Virus record (IMG/VR): IMGVR_UViG_3300046167_000780 | Length of the DNA: 29,120 nt | Direction: 5' to 3' (one strand) | Source of the DNA: an uncultured virus (IMG/VR IMGVR_UViG_3300046167_000780) | Taxonomy: Duplodnaviria; Heunggongvirae; Uroviricota; Caudoviricetes; Demerecviridae | Shown here: piece by piece, positions 12,109 through 29,120 of the stretch | How positions within the stretch are numbered: position 1 is the first letter of the stretch | Layout of the letters: each line of letters starts with the position of its first letter | Position numbers and translations under genes: made by a program | The notes under the pieces: model-generated | What the model was told of the DNA's origin: nothing | Databases searched by the model: none | Seen by the model: only the letters and a program-made list of their open reading frames with translations

Positions 12109-12392
12109 TAGTTTTCATCCACACCAAAGCCAGCGGATGCTAAAGCATCACCATCCCAATCGTCGAGATAGTTTTCGCCGTCATAATAATCATCCTCTAC
12201 TTCTCCGTTGAGCATTTCGTCACACACATCTTGTGCATACTGATAATAGTCAGCGTGCTCATCATCAAAGAGGTGAAAGTATTTTGATAGTCGAGCGAGT
12301 ACTACATCTGCGTGCTCATAGTCACCAGTGTCCATATCTTTCTCGAGCATATCGAATAGATCCATAATTTTAGGTGTGAGTCTACTATTCAT
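12105..12392 (-). CDS. Acidic hypothetical protein (C-terminal DGDALASAGFG motif)
   Basis: Likely start MNSRLTPK at 12392, overlapping the cytochrome c stop (ATGA). Confidence 0.75.
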   Translation of the reverse strand: MNSRLTPKIMDLFDMLEKDMDTGDYEHADVVLARLSKYFHLFDDEHADYYQYAQDVCDEMLNGEVEDDYYDGENYLDDWDGDALASAGFGVDENY

Positions 12393-12745
12393 TGTGTTGG
12401 AAATCCTTCTTGAACAAATACTCCAATCGTGCCAATCTGACCTTCTGTTAAGCTTTGTGCCCAAGGAATCATCATAGCGGCTTGAGGACCGTCTTTGTGT
12501 CCCATTCTATAGTCAATTAACTTACTGATAATTTCATCAGCAGACTGACCTGCTAGAGTTGGACCGATCCCGCCCTGACCCATAGCACCATGGCAAGTAC
12601 TGCACATAGCCCAGGGCTGACGTATATCTTGGAAACGATCGGTGTTAGATGCAAAAGCAGGAAAGACTGTCCACTCTTGCAACGTATCTTGTGCAATTGC
12701 TGTTGGAGCAACTGCAAGTAGTGCTGTCAATAAAACTTTTTTCAT
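12389..12745 (-). CDS. Secreted class I monoheme cytochrome c (c553/c4-like)
   Basis: Signal peptide MKKVLLTALLAVAPTAIA; heme motif CSTCHG; GPTLAGQ; candidate distal Met in QAAMM. Confidence 0.9.
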   Translation of the reverse strand: MKKVLLTALLAVAPTAIAQDTLQEWTVFPAFASNTDRFQDIRQPWAMCSTCHGAMGQGGIGPTLAGQSADEIISKLIDYRMGHKDGPQAAMMIPWAQSLTEGQIGTIGVFVQEGFPTQ

Positions 12746-13110: not shown

Positions 13111-14460
13111 TCAGAGGTCGTCAATATCTTCATCAGTTTTGTGTGAACTAGCTTCTCGCTCCTTAGGAGTAAGAGCTGTCTCAGGACCCATTTTCAAAGA
13201 CTCCCAGTCCATAACAGAACTGAAGGACTTCATACTAGCGGCTCTCATCTTCACACAGTTGAAAGTGATGCACTCGTCTTCTTGATCCCAGGTTTCCAGC
13301 GCGTAAGCTGCGTCCGCTGCATCAAGAATACCTTTGGCAAAGCGAGCTTCGCCTGTAGCATCAGTTTGGTAAGGAGAGAATACTGTGCATTCATACTCCT
13401 GTGCCATGGCTTTCAACGCCTTAGAAACTTCAATCTGTTCCGTCCAATCGTACTGCCCTCCTCGCGAGGGTAGGTTGGATCTTTTGACTTGGTTGATATA
13501 GTCTACAATGATAACACCGGCATCCATTTTGCTGACTTTTTTATCCAGCTCAGCCCGTATCTTTGCGAGAGTGAGTCCCGGATCATATACTACATCTAGC
13601 TGTTGAGTCGGGAGAAGCTCGTGCTGAGTAGTAAGAACCCTATGAAACTCTTGGAAGTCTCGCTTTTCTTTGTATTCTTTCAACCGATCCTGGCCTTGCT
13701 GGAAGCGGCTCGCCCACCAGCCAGCCACTTTCTCCCACTCAATCACAGAAAGATTCTGTGTTCGTAGTCGAGAATATGGCACTCCAGTAGCGATAGAACA
13801 ACACCGTTGCAGTATTGATCTACTATCCATTTCGATCGTGAAATAAATAGCTGAACGTCCAGATTGAAATACGTTGTTTGCAATGTTTGCACACGTAAGA
13901 GATTTACCAGAGCCTCTACGACCGCCGACCAGTACCAAATCTCGGGGGGAGAACTTGATTTCATGGTCGTACTCTGCGTTGAGACCAAGACCAATATATT
14001 TACTGATCTCTTCTTCAGGTTCAAATAGCTCAATACGTTGCATACTTTCTTGAGGAACTTCAAGGTCAACCTTGTCCTCAATGTCCAAAACAATCTGATG
14101 AAGCTCTTGCACTGACTCTTCCGCAGACGAAAAGACTACAGAATTATCAATGTAATTGTCAAGAGAGTTAAGGATTTCCTTCTGAGTATATTCATTCTTT
14201 AGATACTCAAGCAAAGCACCGGCATCAACATCTACGTCTATGCCTTCGATAGCGAAGACTTTATCGCGGGTAGGTCCATGACGAATACTTAACTTGAGAT
14301 CATCGAACGAAGGGAACTCATGAAAGCTCTCGCAATGCTTGTCAATTTGACCATAAAGCGTGTGATACTCTACAGGCAGATACTCTTTACGTAGATAACT
14401 CCACGTTTCAAAGTCAGCCGTAGCGATGCACTGCTTTATTAAAGCACTAGAAATATTCAA
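13111..14460 (-). CDS. D6: DnaB-like replicative helicase (T5 D6)
   Basis: GGRRGSGKS, FTIEM, IIVDYINQV, PYQ, ARFAKGILDAAD; TTG start after a GGGGGA RBS. Confidence 0.93.
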   Translation of the reverse strand: MNISSALIKQCIATADFETWSYLRKEYLPVEYHTLYGQIDKHCESFHEFPSFDDLKLSIRHGPTRDKVFAIEGIDVDVDAGALLEYLKNEYTQKEILNSLDNYIDNSVVFSSAEESVQELHQIVLDIEDKVDLEVPQESMQRIELFEPEEEISKYIGLGLNAEYDHEIKFSPRDLVLVGGRRGSGKSLTCANIANNVFQSGRSAIYFTIEMDSRSILQRCCSIATGVPYSRLRTQNLSVIEWEKVAGWWASRFQQGQDRLKEYKEKRDFQEFHRVLTTQHELLPTQQLDVVYDPGLTLAKIRAELDKKVSKMDAGVIIVDYINQVKRSNLPSRGGQYDWTEQIEVSKALKAMAQEYECTVFSPYQTDATGEARFAKGILDAADAAYALETWDQEDECITFNCVKMRAASMKSFSSVMDWESLKMGPETALTPKEREASSHKTDEDIDDL

Positions 14461-20991: not shown

Positions 20992-21558
20992 TTATCGTAG
21001 TTTGCTCAGTATAAAACTTGGATCTGTATACATGTAAGGATCCTTCTCATGATTGTCTTCTTTTCCTTCCTCGATGAACCAGTCAGTGATATGCCCATTT
21101 TCTACTACTGCTGCATATCTCCAAGAGCGTCGGCCAAAGCCAAGATTATCTTTGTCTACAATCATTTGCATTTCTTCTGTAAACTTTGCGTTACCATCAG
21201 GAATTACTTGTATGTGCTCGAGGTTTTGGTCTTTTGCCCACGAGTTGCATACGAATGCATCGTTTACTGTGAAGCAGTAGATTGCATCAATACCAAGCTC
21301 AAAGAATTGTGGTGCAAGTCGCTCAAACTCTGGTAGTTGGTAGGTGGAACAGGTTGGCGTGAAAGCGCCTGGCAGGGAGAACATTAATACTCGCTCTCCT
21401 GCAAATAAATCCCATGTAGTTATGGGAAGCCACTCGAAGTTTCCGTCATTCAGAATTCGAGTTTGAAATGTTGTAGAAGGTACCATGTCTGGTAGTGAAC
21501 GCCAGTAGCCTTTCTCTTCGTACTGAGCGCGTTCGTGTTCTGTGCAATAAATAGTCAT
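20992..21558 (-). CDS. Peroxiredoxin (Prx5/PGdx type)
   Basis: FSLPGAFTPTCS with the peroxidatic Cys; VNDAFV; PDGN; GFGRRSWRYA. Confidence 0.93.
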   Translation of the reverse strand: MTIYCTEHERAQYEEKGYWRSLPDMVPSTTFQTRILNDGNFEWLPITTWDLFAGERVLMFSLPGAFTPTCSTYQLPEFERLAPQFFELGIDAIYCFTVNDAFVCNSWAKDQNLEHIQVIPDGNAKFTEEMQMIVDKDNLGFGRRSWRYAAVVENGHITDWFIEEGKEDNHEKDPYMYTDPSFILSKLR

Positions 21559-22128
21559 TTATGCCTCACTGTAGGTTAGGTTTAAATCTGCGTGATGTTG
21601 TTCATCGCGTCGAATATAACGAACCATGTCAGACAGCTTAGCTTCTGGAAGTAGGTCGTAGTAGTCAATCGCGATCTGTGGTGCAGGTACATCTTCGATG
21701 CGTCCTGCTTCAATCTCTGCGAGGTAATCAGTATAGCTTCGTACTGCTTCCTCTTCAAAATAATGTATCATAAGATGCGCTGTACTTGGTGCAAATATGT
21801 ACATTACTAGATAATAGTGCCAGAATATCAACTGTGCCAGTACGATGAGACCCCGCTCCAGCTTTGTAGGCTGCACTATTTCCATGAAAAACATAAGATG
21901 CTTACGTTCGTTTTCTGCTTCCGCAAGCATCTCATGAATCTTACTGCCTTGTCCTTTCTTCAAGCCACGAAGGCTTGATAAATGTGTTAGCATTCCAGCA
22001 ACCATTCCAGGCACGCCTGCAACAGTTTCCAGAACTATAGCTCTGTGACCGTATCGCTTACGAAAGAACATATCTGCCGTAAAGCGAAAAAACTTTGTCA
22101 TAGACTTTGCTACAATTTTATTAGACAT
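21559..22128 (-). CDS. aox: Alternative oxidase (diiron ubiquinol oxidase)
   Basis: LETVAGVPGMV, EAENERKHL, YFEEEAVRSY, IRRDEQHH: all four Glu and two His diiron ligands are present. Confidence 0.93.
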   Translation of the reverse strand: MSNKIVAKSMTKFFRFTADMFFRKRYGHRAIVLETVAGVPGMVAGMLTHLSSLRGLKKGQGSKIHEMLAEAENERKHLMFFMEIVQPTKLERGLIVLAQLIFWHYYLVMYIFAPSTAHLMIHYFEEEAVRSYTDYLAEIEAGRIEDVPAPQIAIDYYDLLPEAKLSDMVRYIRRDEQHHADLNLTYSEA

Positions 22129-22567
22129 TCTCAAGTCTTGCCATTAATCTTTCGGCTCGATTTCCAACTTGGCGATGCCATAGTGAGTCTCGGCCTTCTA
22201 TTCCTGCTGTAGTCCAGTCACCGACTTCAAGTGCGGCATTGAACTTCTTAAACTTCGAGAGACGAGGACGTCCAAGATTGAACATCATATTTACGAGTAT
22301 CTCTTGTACTTCACCTGGGAAAGCACACCATACGTCTGCTCCGTAGAGTGCTACACACTCACTTACAGCCACATCGAGATCGCTGTTAAAACACTCAATG
22401 ACTCGCTCGACAGAAACTGGCTCTCCGACTTCGTATCCGTGCTCTGGATCTGACTCAAGCACGAGATGTCCCACTCCGAAGGTCTTGTACCCAAGATGGT
22501 CCAAATAAATTTCATAGACGACTCCCTCATCAATCTTTAACTGTTCATATACAGATTCTTTGTTCAT
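22121..22567 (-). CDS. T4-type (GH24) lysozyme
   Basis: LKIDEG..YEIYLDHLGYKTFGVGHL has the E-D-T catalytic spacing; NMMFNLG, DSLWHRQVGNRAERL. Start MNKES at 22567. Confidence 0.9.
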   Translation of the reverse strand: MNKESVYEQLKIDEGVVYEIYLDHLGYKTFGVGHLVLESDPEHGYEVGEPVSVERVIECFNSDLDVAVSECVALYGADVWCAFPGEVQEILVNMMFNLGRPRLSKFKKFNAALEVGDWTTAGIEGRDSLWHRQVGNRAERLMARLENV

Positions 22568-24167: not shown

Positions 24168-24498
24168 GCAGATAGGTTTTGCAATCTATGATTTATACCA
24201 ATTCTTTTTTAGTCTGAAAGTCAATCCATTAAGGCACATACCGAATGAACTTGTACAGTTTATTCTCATGTTTTACTTATCAGTGATGTGGTCAGTAGTG
24301 TTTACTTTCTGGGCAGGGTACACTTGGATGTATGGTATTTATAGTGTGGGAGGCCACCTCATGGTGCTTGCTGCATTCTTTATCACTGTTGCTATATTTC
24401 ACGATGCAGAAAAGAATGGACACTTGTGGGTACAACGAAGCAATCTACCCCCAGTACCCAAGCGTCGTATTGTTTGGGATACAGAGAGGGAAGGATAA
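24160..24498 (+). CDS. Two-TM membrane protein (NPLRHIP motif)
   Basis: Two hydrophobic segments; coupled to iscU by TAATG. Confidence 0.78.
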   Translation: MIKQIGFAIYDLYQFFFSLKVNPLRHIPNELVQFILMFYLSVMWSVVFTFWAGYTWMYGIYSVGGHLMVLAAFFITVAIFHDAEKNGHLWVQRSNLPPVPKRRIVWDTEREG

Positions 24499-24872
24499 TG
24501 TACTCAGATAAAGTAATAGATCACTACGAAAATCCTCGCAATGTTGGAAAGATGAATAGAGAGGATAAGGATGTTGGTACAGGTATGGTCGGAGCACCTG
24601 CCTGTGGTGACGTTATGCAGTTGCAGATAAGAGTAGAAGATGGAATCATCGAAGATGCGAAGTTTAAAACTTATGGCTGTGGTAGTGCTATTGCTTCTAG
24701 TTCTTTACTCACCGAGTGGGTCAAAGGCAAAAGTTTGGAAGAAGCCGGGCGAATCACTAATACAGACATCGCAAAAGAACTTATACTTCCTCCAGTAAAA
24801 ATACATTGTAGTGTGTTGGCAGAAGATGCTATAAAGGCTGCAATTAAAGATTATAATGAAAAGGGGCAGTAA
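24498..24872 (+). CDS. iscU: Fe-S cluster scaffold IscU
   Basis: MYSDKVIDHYENPRNVG, GAPACGDVM, KTYGCGSAIAS, LPPVKIHCSVLAEDAIKAA: three Cys ligands plus the HscA-binding LPPVK motif. Confidence 0.97.
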   Translation: MYSDKVIDHYENPRNVGKMNREDKDVGTGMVGAPACGDVMQLQIRVEDGIIEDAKFKTYGCGSAIASSSLLTEWVKGKSLEEAGRITNTDIAKELILPPVKIHCSVLAEDAIKAAIKDYNEKGQ

Positions 24873-25329: not shown

Positions 25330-25641
25330 GCCCACCACTCCTTCATAACTGCTACGGTGAGCATAAACCAGCTGACCGTGTTTAACATTATCAATGCACG
25401 GTCACGCCATATCACTGATACCCAAATCCATAATACGATGCCTATCCATCCTAGATATAAATCGTACATTCTATACTCTACACCCTGCTGCTCGCATCAT
25501 CAACGATGCCATAACAAAGAGGCTCGCAACCCATTTTAGATACCAATGAAAGTCTTCGGGCCACCAAGTTCTATCTGGCTTCGATATTCCCATAGCACGG
25601 ATCATAGGATTTCCAACTCCGCCATTTCCTTCTTTTTCCAA
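25326..25641 (-). CDS. DUF6552-like three-TM membrane protein with an apparent 1-nt insertion at about 25483-25485
   Basis: WYLKWVASLFVMASLMMRAAG continues in another frame as VEYRMYDLYLGWIGIVLWIWVSVIWRDRALIMLN...KEWWA*, whose stop overlaps the next start. Confidence 0.72.
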
Positions 25642-25724
25642 CTTCACTCTCCAATAATACACTTTTTTCTGTTTTGTTCACACTGTACAATACGCCAAGC
25701 CATATACCTACTCAAAAATGGTAT

Positions 25725-25753
25725 TTTACTTATGCCAAAAAGTGTGATAAAAT
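25725..25753 (+). promoter_or_regulatory. Putative extended -10 promoter for the structured element
   Basis: TTTACT, 17 nt, TAAAAT with TG at -15/-14; upstream A-tract. Confidence 0.55.
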
Positions 25754-25759
25754 ATATCA

Positions 25760-26065
25760 ATAATTGATAGACAATCAAGTCAATCATACTTCTCACCAAC
25801 CAACAGCGTAGGAAGTATCGTTGTAGTAATTACTGCGTTTAGAGTTGAAGGCGTTAGCCTTTCCACTCGGTACCCAGTATATTACAAATAGCTACTTTCA
25901 AGCTGTAATAATCCCACTTCTAATTGACTACTAATCATGGTGTCAATTACGACAAACCAAAATGACCCGGATAATCAAATAATTCTAAGACGGGTCAAAA
26001 CATTCAAACTGCTTTACTACAATTACGTCTTCTTTTATGCAATTCGGCCAAACCGAAATTTTTTT
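25760..26065 (+). ncRNA. Candidate ~300-nt multi-hairpin structured RNA (alternatively a DNA cis element or origin)
   Basis: Six or more successive stems plus a 9-bp long-range closing helix; G-U compatibility favours the + strand; flanked by a promoter and a hairpin + T7. Confidence 0.55.
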
Positions 26066-26085
26066 AAAGGGTCTTAAAAACCCTT
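26043..26085. terminator. Tandem hairpins; the first is followed by T7 on +
   Basis: TTCGG-CCAAA-CCGAA-ATTTTTTT and AAGGGT-CTTAAAA-ACCCTT. Confidence 0.5.
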
Positions 26086-26091
26086 ACTTCT

Positions 26092-26238
26092 TTACAACAA
26101 TTTATGTCTAATTCTTTCAAATAGGGTATAGAATGGATAAATTATCACGCCTACAGTACAGATTGCTACTAGTGTTAGAACCATACTAGCTAAACCGTAG
26201 CCCAACCATACTGCTATAGTCGGTAGTATTTCAATCAC
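26092..26238 (-). CDS. 48-aa membrane protein
   Basis: GTG start after GGGG; long hydrophobic stretch. Confidence 0.65.
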   Translation of the reverse strand: MIEILPTIAVWLGYGLASMVLTLVAICTVGVIIYPFYTLFERIRHKLL

Positions 26239-26464
26239 GTTGTGACCCCGCCACCGCTTTTTGCCAAGCAATGGTGAACTGCTCTTCTGCCCTAGCATTT
26301 TTAAAATTAATACGATTGTGATAGGGATCGAGATTACACTCAATATCTTCTAGCTCACAAATCGCAGCAGCTCTCCCAAACGACGGGGTCGAAGTAAATT
26401 GAGTACTCGGCCCATAATACTGCTTATCTTCCATCTCTTCTTCATAGTATCCACCGCACATCAT
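26231..26464 (-). CDS. Hypothetical protein
   Basis: ATGA overlap with the upstream gene; GGAGG RBS. Confidence 0.7.
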   Translation of the reverse strand: MMCGGYYEEEMEDKQYYGPSTQFTSTPSFGRAAAICELEDIECNLDPYHNRINFKNARAEEQFTIAWQKAVAGSQRD

Positions 26465-26814
26465 AGACCTCCTGGGTACTCGCTGTTCTCGAAACTTGCT
26501 GTTAACCCCGCCACTGCTTTTTCCAAGTTTCGTAACGCTGTCTTGGGACTTTTCTCCAAGCCAGCCAGAGACGCAACTTCAATTCCAAGATCCTCACAGA
26601 TATTGTTAACGATTTCCACTTTTGTGACAGGACTTTCACCAGTCTTTGATACATACACTTCTCTCCTGTATACGCCTTCTCTGCTGAGTTTACCAATTAT
26701 TGATTTTGTACTACGCCCTAGCTCTTCTGCTAGTTTATCTACTGTTTCTCGTGTTGGGTCTAAAATATACGCTGAAATCATTGCTTCAGTTTGCTGTTCA
26801 GTATAGTTCGACAT
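26461..26814 (-). CDS. A2/D3-like HTH DNA-binding protein, paralog 1
   Basis: MSNYTEQQT...PTRETVDKLAEELGRSTKSIIGKLSREGVY; GAGGA RBS. Confidence 0.8.
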   Translation of the reverse strand: MSNYTEQQTEAMISAYILDPTRETVDKLAEELGRSTKSIIGKLSREGVYRREVYVSKTGESPVTKVEIVNNICEDLGIEVASLAGLEKSPKTALRNLEKAVAGLTASFENSEYPGGL

Positions 26815-27327: not shown

Positions 27328-27352
27328 GGTATTTTTTAGGTGAGGTAGGCAT

Positions 27353-27375
27353 AAAAAAGCCCGTATGAAACGGGC
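27353..27375 (-). terminator. Intrinsic terminator
   Basis: GCCCGT-TTCAT-ACGGGC followed by TTTTTT. Confidence 0.88.
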
Positions 27376-27600
27376 AACGGACTTGCTATGTCGAATAAGT
27401 GTGGAAGCCCCAACCATGCTCTACCCACTGTCCACCAAGTGATCTGTTTCCGAGCCAATCACCAAAACGCACGCCTACATCATATCGCTACTAGGAAGCG
27501 CCTACGCTAATAACACCGGATAGTAGGCTCGGCGACGAGGGTAGTCAGCAACGGCTGGAGCAAATCGGCTCATGTTGCTACCGCTATACCTCGATTTGAA
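27353..27600 (-). ncRNA. Candidate ~245-nt stand-alone structured ncRNA, family unrecognised
   Basis: Own promoter and terminator, no convincing ORF, a long G-U-rich helix (27561-27528 with 27439-27407) enclosing three hairpins. Confidence 0.72.
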
Positions 27601-28907: not shown

Positions 28908-28935
28908 TTTTTGTCTCCTCTCATTCAATGTAAAC

Positions 28936-28964
28936 ATTATACTACCACGGGCAACTCAAGTCAA
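28936..28964 (-). promoter_or_regulatory. Sigma70-type promoter
   Basis: TTGACT, 17 nt, TATAAT. Confidence 0.85.
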
Positions 28965-29120
28965 GAACTATTTTTCCGAATTGGTCATAAAGCCAACGCA
29001 CCCGAATTCCGGGGGGCGGGTCGCGAATTTTTGCTGTCAAGAAATATTTGCCCAAATTTTCCAAAAATATTTACAATCGTCGCGGGGTAGCCTCGGTTTG
29101 CCACAATTAGCCATAATTAT

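Follow-up and report, generated by a model that had tools for sequence, protein, structure and literature searches.

A conserved RNA gene with two exclusive folds and a phased DNA tail in marine T5-like phages, possibly a mimic of an opening promoter

Introduction

The element described here has its closest counterparts among RNAs that bind bacterial RNA polymerase and among origins of replication that are primed by transcription (ColE1 RNA II, T4 oriE and oriF) or that work as single-strand promoters and origins (Frpo, sso). The tools known to us that phages employ against host RNA polymerase are proteins. Among the polymerase-binding RNAs, 6S RNA is the nearest in build: as outlined in PMC8876501, it has a core of about 190 nt with an interrupted closing helix between its 5' and 3' parts, a long interrupted arm, A/C-rich single strands and a 5' arm of about 40 nt, all of which are shared by the present element. 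The gamma-proteobacterial 6S release hairpin, as sketched in PMC3988568, combines the 3' strand of the bubble with the 3' strand of the closing helix, and the helices termed P0 and P3 below are built in the same way. Ms1 and CoRP, which the relevant part of PMC11077062 describes as actinobacterial RNA-polymerase-binding RNAs, longer than 6S RNA, structured and missed by 6S searches, indicate that other classes of polymerase-binding RNA exist; their hosts differ, and polymerase binding by the present element is a prediction.

T5 and its relatives provide further points of comparison. The eight stable RNAs of T5 (RNAI, III, IV, 1, 2, 2H, 3 and X), of unknown function, come from the same phage family, lie in the tRNA region and have other folds. 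The T5 injection-stop signal is presented, in the part of 10.1101/866236 that concerns it, as a set of DnaA boxes and repeats situated at the terminal repeat's inner end, and the T5 origins are described in the corresponding passage of PMC3632103 only as multiple and internal. Searches of the literature for phage-encoded 6S-like RNA and structured phage RNAs, at the level of listings, returned none for this element; the survey PMC10690425 comprises RNA models of 30-151 nt and could include a piece of it.

Results and Discussion

Phage setting and retention of the island

The window, i.e. the whole stretch of 29,120 nt that was analysed, is part of a T5-like (Demerecviridae-like) phage, with genes for a polymerase, a primase, helicases, a split ligase and D5- and A2/D3-like proteins; the polymerase shares 44-45% identity with its counterparts from cultured Vibrio and Aeromonas Demerecviridae. 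The best 80 genome matches of its IscU protein are nearly all from Gammaproteobacteria (78-83% identity, no single lineage), which points to a gammaproteobacterial host. The non-coding island lies directly downstream of, and convergent with, a gene for an A2/D3-like DNA-binding protein (26461-26814, minus strand; phrog_1725, E 1.7e-4), which synteny identifies as its constant neighbour; the left neighbours vary.

Altogether, 168 matches including the window were collected, 155 of them long enough and 122 distinct; clustering at 90% identity gave 63, and 62 were used after L188, a false pattern match without a model R1 match, had been dropped. The 38 viral sequences compared share a mean identity of 50%. 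A search with the neighbouring A2-like protein found 16 loci, all with the island. In an independent, protein-started test of the best 80 of 235 A2-like loci, 53 match model R1 at E<=1, 10 end too soon past the gene to be informative and each of the remaining 17 has a promoter-like site and a rod in the corresponding position, i.e. the island is retained in 70 of 70 informative loci, many of which are close relatives. One copy each is present in the window and in the genomes G008 and G007. Model R1 misses a divergent subfamily (L542, L552, L555, L558, L559, L562, L570, L574, L577 and others) with a shorter 5' arm, the same rod and its own pair of mutually exclusive helices; in several divergent homologs the rod base bears a perfect TATAAT, which the predicted fold pairs in some of them.

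No match to the island was found by blastn among 50,697 cultured phage records. Model R1 found none in five cultured Demerecviridae genomes (a first look without candidates, and a weak test), and its best E in an unfiltered search of 49 kb of T5 was 0.22. The loop motif of hairpin P4 (below), used as a search pattern, returned 94 loci, 30 with an R1 match at E<=1 and no clearly new family. The Rfam comparison that had been proposed for the island yielded no match, either at the gathering score or at E<=10, and ARAGORN and Rfam detected no tRNA or tmRNA in it. The island is a new structured family, well aligned over 122 distinct sequences, that fits no catalogued RNA family.

Promoter and 5' end

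The unit is headed by a conserved sigma-70, T5-type promoter (25713-25753, plus strand), near-invariant in alignment A1 and composed of an upstream A-tract, a weak -35 element TTTACT (25725-30), a conserved spacer, a TG and the -10 element TAAAAT (25748-53). The extended -10 promoter reported originally is thus present, as TTTACT-17-TG.TAAAAT (25725-25753), and is conserved among relatives; the promoter pattern matched 48 viral stretches and at least 119 from metagenomes. Other early promoters in the window follow the consensus, in contrast to the weak -35 and TG of this one. According to the section of PMC5982834 on this point, promoters of the latter kind were tied to 6S sensitivity by one study and not by two, and because these studies disagree, promoter style adds little to the case for a 6S-like role.

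Judging from the distance to the -10 element, transcription would start at about 25759-60. The predicted 5' end (25759-25785, plus strand) opens with a T5-like sequence and includes a weak hairpin, and the start motif also stands behind the T5 promoter P-H207. On the minus strand, a possible divergent extended -10 promoter (25751-25778) overlaps the island promoter and could serve the leftward small genes.

Rod and earlier hairpin chain

Compared with shuffled sequence on both strands, as suggested with the original prediction, the island folds beyond chance, more strongly on the plus strand (z -6.75) than on the minus strand (z -3.41), and 0 of 100 shuffles equal it on either. In a scan of 21.5-29.1 kb with 150-nt windows, the two lowest plus-strand z-scores (-4.2 and -4.6) fall in the island; on the minus strand, coding windows reach z -4.7.

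The largest component is a rod, P2, of about 100 nt (25803-25906, plus strand; median 105 nt and 37.5 bp across homologs), whose shape is kept and whose sequence is free save for a central core. In a sequence-only alignment (n=28), this core (25831-37/25873-79) is 95.6% paired, with 36 double changes and 0/500 shuffles reaching its covariation; the basal and core helices are fully kept in L001 and L002. Since the rods are too divergent, RNAalifold recovers only 6 core pairs from the sequence-only alignment, and plain alifold none from 38 rows.

The island had been read as a chain of hairpins, four of them closed into a multibranch domain by a 9-bp long-range pair. All of the listed stems, and the 9-bp complementarity (25821-25829/26014-26022), are present in the sequence, but only some are conserved among relatives. 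The stems 25921-25949 and 25963-25997 are kept, as is 25842-25868, which forms the apical tip of the rod. Hairpin 25786-25818 retains only 7/8, 7/8 and 4/8 of its pairs in L001, L002 and L005, respectively, and among the 28 rows aligned its eight pairs are canonical in only 8-25. Hairpin 25880-25910 retains 6/10, 6/10 and 5/10; the arms of these unconserved hairpins belong, in the predicted fold, to the rod or to the closing helix. The long-range pair is kept at 7/9, 7/9 and 4/9, which leaves the multibranch domain without support; as a search pattern it found 109 loci, none homologous to the island. The proposed terminator stem (26043-26057) has 3/5 pairs in each of the three relatives, and a conserved intrinsic terminator is lacking.

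Closing helix and alternative hairpin

The rod is enclosed by an interrupted closing helix, P0, with its 5' strand at 25779-25798, followed by a conserved AAC, and its 3' strand, defined by covariation, at 25938-25953 (plus strand). The 5' strand ends 37-41 nt from the predicted start in all 62 homologs. Of the 48,949 column pairs in an unguided covariation scan, 25794:25942 came third, and it led those that are mostly canonical. P0 is 79.9% paired with 35 double changes and 0/500 shuffles (sequence-only alignment; the shuffles ignore relatedness), as against 19-47% pairing in slid controls. In the alignment fitted to the model, three of its inner pairs are canonical in 60/62, 58/61 and 57/61 sequences; pair 41-331 is canonical in 60/62, with five pair types. 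The cognate duplex beats the non-cognate mean in 50 of 62 cases and falls in the top tenth in only 9, a modest effect. The homolog alignment called for by the original prediction did reveal covariation, in the rod core and the closing helix.

Beyond the rod, a single strand (25907-25917, plus strand) presents a -10-like hexamer, here AATAAT, and then CCC; such a hexamer is present in 18 of 59 homologs, and the bases of the junction are invariant. Next comes the alternative hairpin P3 (25918-25952, plus strand; 64.5% paired, 1/500 shuffles on covariation), which forms in 37 of 62 open-state folds. P0 and P3 exclude each other because both use the 3' strand 25938-25953. Forcing P0 gives folds a median of 3.25 kcal less stable than those in which its 5' strand is free, and the closed state lies within 1 kcal of the minimum in 11/62. 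P0 is conserved and yet not the energy minimum; it is therefore presumably kept by selection and would mark a switch or a protein-stabilised state.

Hairpin P4 (25963-25997, plus strand) is recognised by sequence conservation, in particular of its loop motif GATAATYWAATA (25970-81). Its column covariation is not significant (67% paired, 34/500 shuffles); its cognate duplexes average -7.4 kcal against -5.2 kcal for non-cognate ones.

Transcription of the island and the question of RNA versus DNA

Seawater RNA contigs span the island in 4/4 runs examined, for example at 25774-26009 and 25746-26022 without differences from the window sequence, these contigs being unstranded, drawn from runs chosen for containing the stretch and accompanied by coverage of much of the phage as well. 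Part of the 1-kb stretch occurs in 20 of 22 runs listed, 15 of which are recorded as RNA, and the runs with the stretch are marine; contig depth does not allow genes to be ranked, and small-share runs outside the four examined are left out of the count. Two of the RNA contigs begin before the predicted start, at 25746, and lower-depth ones run on beyond 26022. Contig ends mark no fixed break at the island.

With RNA energies, the plus strand folds better than the minus strand in 18 of 21 sampled homologs (median z -6.6 vs -4.6), and this, together with the fact that the fold begins at the predicted start and that the 5' strand of P0 keeps its distance of 37-41 nt from it, speaks for RNA. With DNA energies the plus strand wins in only 9 of 21, and the RNA and DNA tables of ViennaRNA loop energies do not separate the two cases. 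The tip loops of the rods (n=62; C-GNYA-G 15, C-GNA-G 10, GNRA 3, UUCG 0) and the low share of G-U (6.6%) hint at DNA; GNA loops are stable in DNA. A reverse transcriptase, as would accompany a retron msr-msd or another RT-linked RNA, is absent from the 51 ORFs of the window and from 106 ORFs picked from 184 listed for G008 and G007, plus one extra; hence no maker of a DNA copy of the island was found among the ORFs scanned. The proposal of an undescribed structured phage RNA on the plus strand is upheld by the conserved promoter, the covarying pairs, the plus-strand preference in 18/21 and the RNA contigs over the island. The island is a genuine gene for a structured RNA that has two states; it is present throughout the clade and ends in a tail of phased DNA.

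This tail (26014-26110) consists of a 10-bp-phased AAT(T/C) array and a T-run (26059-65). In 47 tails, 71 motif pairs are spaced at 10 bp and 36 at 20 bp, and indels keep the phase: among 71 sequences scored, lengths change in steps of about 10 bp, and peaks fall at 23-24 and 33-35. As phasing with the helix is peculiar to double-stranded DNA, the 10-bp spacing identifies the tail as a DNA-level element. Because similar arrays precede ordinary tandem strong promoters 3-4 kb from the island, the tail may be a bend or a protein-binding site rather than an origin repeat.

Candidate functions

The reading tentatively preferred here, with somewhat less than an even chance of being correct, is that the island encodes a stand-alone, non-coding phage RNA, about 240-300 nt long, which would imitate a sigma-70 promoter in the act of opening and, like 6S RNA, bind the holoenzyme of the host RNA polymerase. 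The rod would take the place of upstream DNA, the -10-like hexamer would be presented by the strand at the 3' base of the rod and the 5' arm would serve as template; the weak closing helix would melt, and the alternative hairpin would catch its 3' strand, comparably to the 6S release hairpin. In nutrient-poor hosts, this would allow the phage to park the host polymerase or to redirect it. The phased AATT tail would act as a DNA element of its own, ending or insulating the unit. The fuller version, in which such a mimic with a release switch, carried by an entire clade of marine T5-like phages, sequesters the host polymerase or times its release, possibly with the same fold priming DNA replication, is a little more doubtful. 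As in 6S RNA, the core is 175-208 nt long and closed between its 5' and 3' parts, and a release hairpin can be drawn from the 3' bubble strand and the closing 3' strand. The -10-like hexamer stands at the rod base in 18/59 homologs against 7.2±2.5 in shuffled sequence, in a window chosen after looking and among related rows; a wider first test gave a weak 26/62 against 18.9±3.6, and the 41/59 homologs without the hexamer count against the mimic. A pyrimidine 13 nt 5' of the rod, again in a window chosen after looking, occurs in 44/59 with a background of 50%. Several comparisons with 6S RNA come out negative. The RF00013 (6S, SsrS) covariance model, which finds 5/5 marine gammaproteobacterial 6S genes, does not match the island, model R1 does not match five host-type 6S RNAs, and host 6S sequence motifs are absent from the island. 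The junction is lopsided (median 7 nt vs 32 nt), unlike the large, roughly balanced 6S bubble, the arm is about 105 nt against about 70 nt in host 6S folds, the closed state, unlike that of 6S RNA, is usually not lowest in energy (median +3.25 kcal), and only the island is phage-encoded and has an extra P4 domain and a phased DNA tail. A T5-like phage itself needs host RNA polymerase, which likewise counts against a decoy, as do the two RNA contigs that start upstream of the predicted start.

A close rival, unlikely in itself and still credible, is a transcription-primed replication-origin module, in which transcription from the promoter would yield a folded RNA acting as primer or activator, or the displaced plus strand would fold as single-stranded DNA, the two-state switch would control hybrid formation as in ColE1 RNA II and the AATT array would bind an initiator or bending protein, as at T4 origins. 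An origin or single-strand signal had been offered originally as the alternative to an RNA; of that proposal, the recurring AATT stands, as a conserved 10-bp-phased DNA array, and the origin itself is what competes with the promoter mimic. The promoter indeed leads into a conserved site, present once in the window, G008 and G007, retained in all 70 informative loci and adjoined by a periodic array whose phase is kept by indels, and the DNA-type tip loops and low G-U fit the same picture. The promoter, the folded transcript or strand, the two-state fold and the adjacent periodic AT-rich array resemble primed and single-strand origins; unlike these, the island has no G-rich hybrid-forming tract, no initiator gene found nearby and no -35/-10 pair inside the rod, and it belongs to a double-stranded lytic phage. 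When 49 kb of T5 were searched with a profile of the promoter and 5' end, the best match (28 bits; the next has 12, and three scanned members score 60-86) fell within the gap that precedes the gene for the origin-binding helicase. The leader before this gene resembles the island in its T5-type promoter and first 14 nt, but homology of the leader body was not detected and this promoter style is common in Demerecviridae; one T5-leader pattern was also written after the T5 sequence had been seen, and the relation may be regarded as a lead only. AATT arrays also occur upstream of ordinary tandem promoters near a terminus-like region and may be generic bends or UP elements. No origin-binding protein was recognised among the ORFs scanned and no DnaA box in the island, GC/AT skew follows the coding strand only and is uninformative, and the two strands differ in folding only when RNA energies are used.

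A riboswitch-like or protein-sensing attenuator, in which a ligand or protein would stabilise P0 and gate antisense transcription into the convergent A2-like operon, would account for a weak covarying helix that competes with a stronger local hairpin, for the invariant junction bases, for the constant convergence with the A2-like gene and for the lower-depth RNA contigs beyond 26022; with no conserved terminator or antiterminator, no plus-strand gene downstream and no Rfam riboswitch match, it is improbable. Ranked next, and improbable to a similar degree, is a decoy or scaffold that would act in trans on another protein, for instance RNase III, a defence protein that senses RNA, or a protein of the phage. 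The long imperfect rod with its small conserved core, the conserved single-stranded motifs and the precedent of the stable T5 RNAs agree with such a role, which leaves the two-state design and the fixed 5' arm length unexplained; moreover, the island is unlike the six T5 RNAs folded, none of which is found by model R1. Chance folding, a mini-gene or a T5 injection-stop signal is very improbable. Covariation in P0 and the rod core argues against chance, and the MTxIIK-stop frame seen in P4 of many homologs was rejected as a mini-ORF, with start and stop both present in only 30/62. Like the T5 injection-stop signal as portrayed in 10.1101/866236, the island is non-coding, near A2-like genes and furnished with repeats of a similar-looking unit; it differs in its promoter-driven covarying fold and its place outside the pre-early-like block. 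Identity with that signal is excluded, as the island has no DnaA box and an iss-like motif lies elsewhere, this motif and the pre-early-like block being about 3-5 kb away in G008.

If the promoter-mimic reading is true, RNA-based takeover would be a new route, by which a virus acts on host RNA polymerase through an RNA and not a protein. If the island is instead an origin module, it would offer a defined handle on the start of replication in the T5 family, still loosely mapped according to the part of PMC3632103 cited above. Either way, a structured family is retained in every informative relative.

Further observations on the phage and its relatives

The window carries auxiliary genes at 20992-22134, 24426-24872 and 12389-12745 (peroxiredoxin, alternative-oxidase-like protein, IscU and a small protein whose CxxCH motif resembles those that bind heme). 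On the minus strand at 25340-25662, a small membrane-protein-like ORF seems, by eye, to be interrupted near 25470 and to continue in another frame. A second gene-free unit on the minus strand (27350-27600) lies between a consensus promoter and a terminator and folds no better than chance (z -0.64); it is well conserved in 4 of 16 close loci and has a longer non-coding counterpart at L382:8300-8640.

The same 10-bp AATT arrays stand before tandem strong promoters at 28916-29120 of the window, 69476-69950 of G008 and 13500-13950 of G007; the promoters number two or three, have no intervening gene and border a pre-early-like block. In G008, this kind of block (L382:9560-12200) shows a higher synonymous GC content, an A2-like ORF and, by eye, a phosphatase-like ORF, and ends in a motif like the repeats of the T5 injection-stop region; no A1-sized ORF was seen in it. 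The T5 leader (NC_005859 58930-59545, L487:34930-35545; also L491 and L494-L496) holds folded, swappable modules, and an insert of about 95 nt is present in 2 of the 5 relatives shown, with no convincing Rfam match. Among the late genes of G008, a glutamine riboswitch (RF01739, 50.8 bits) occurs at L382:17941-17995, which is the same as L379:47-101 through a contig-end overlap.
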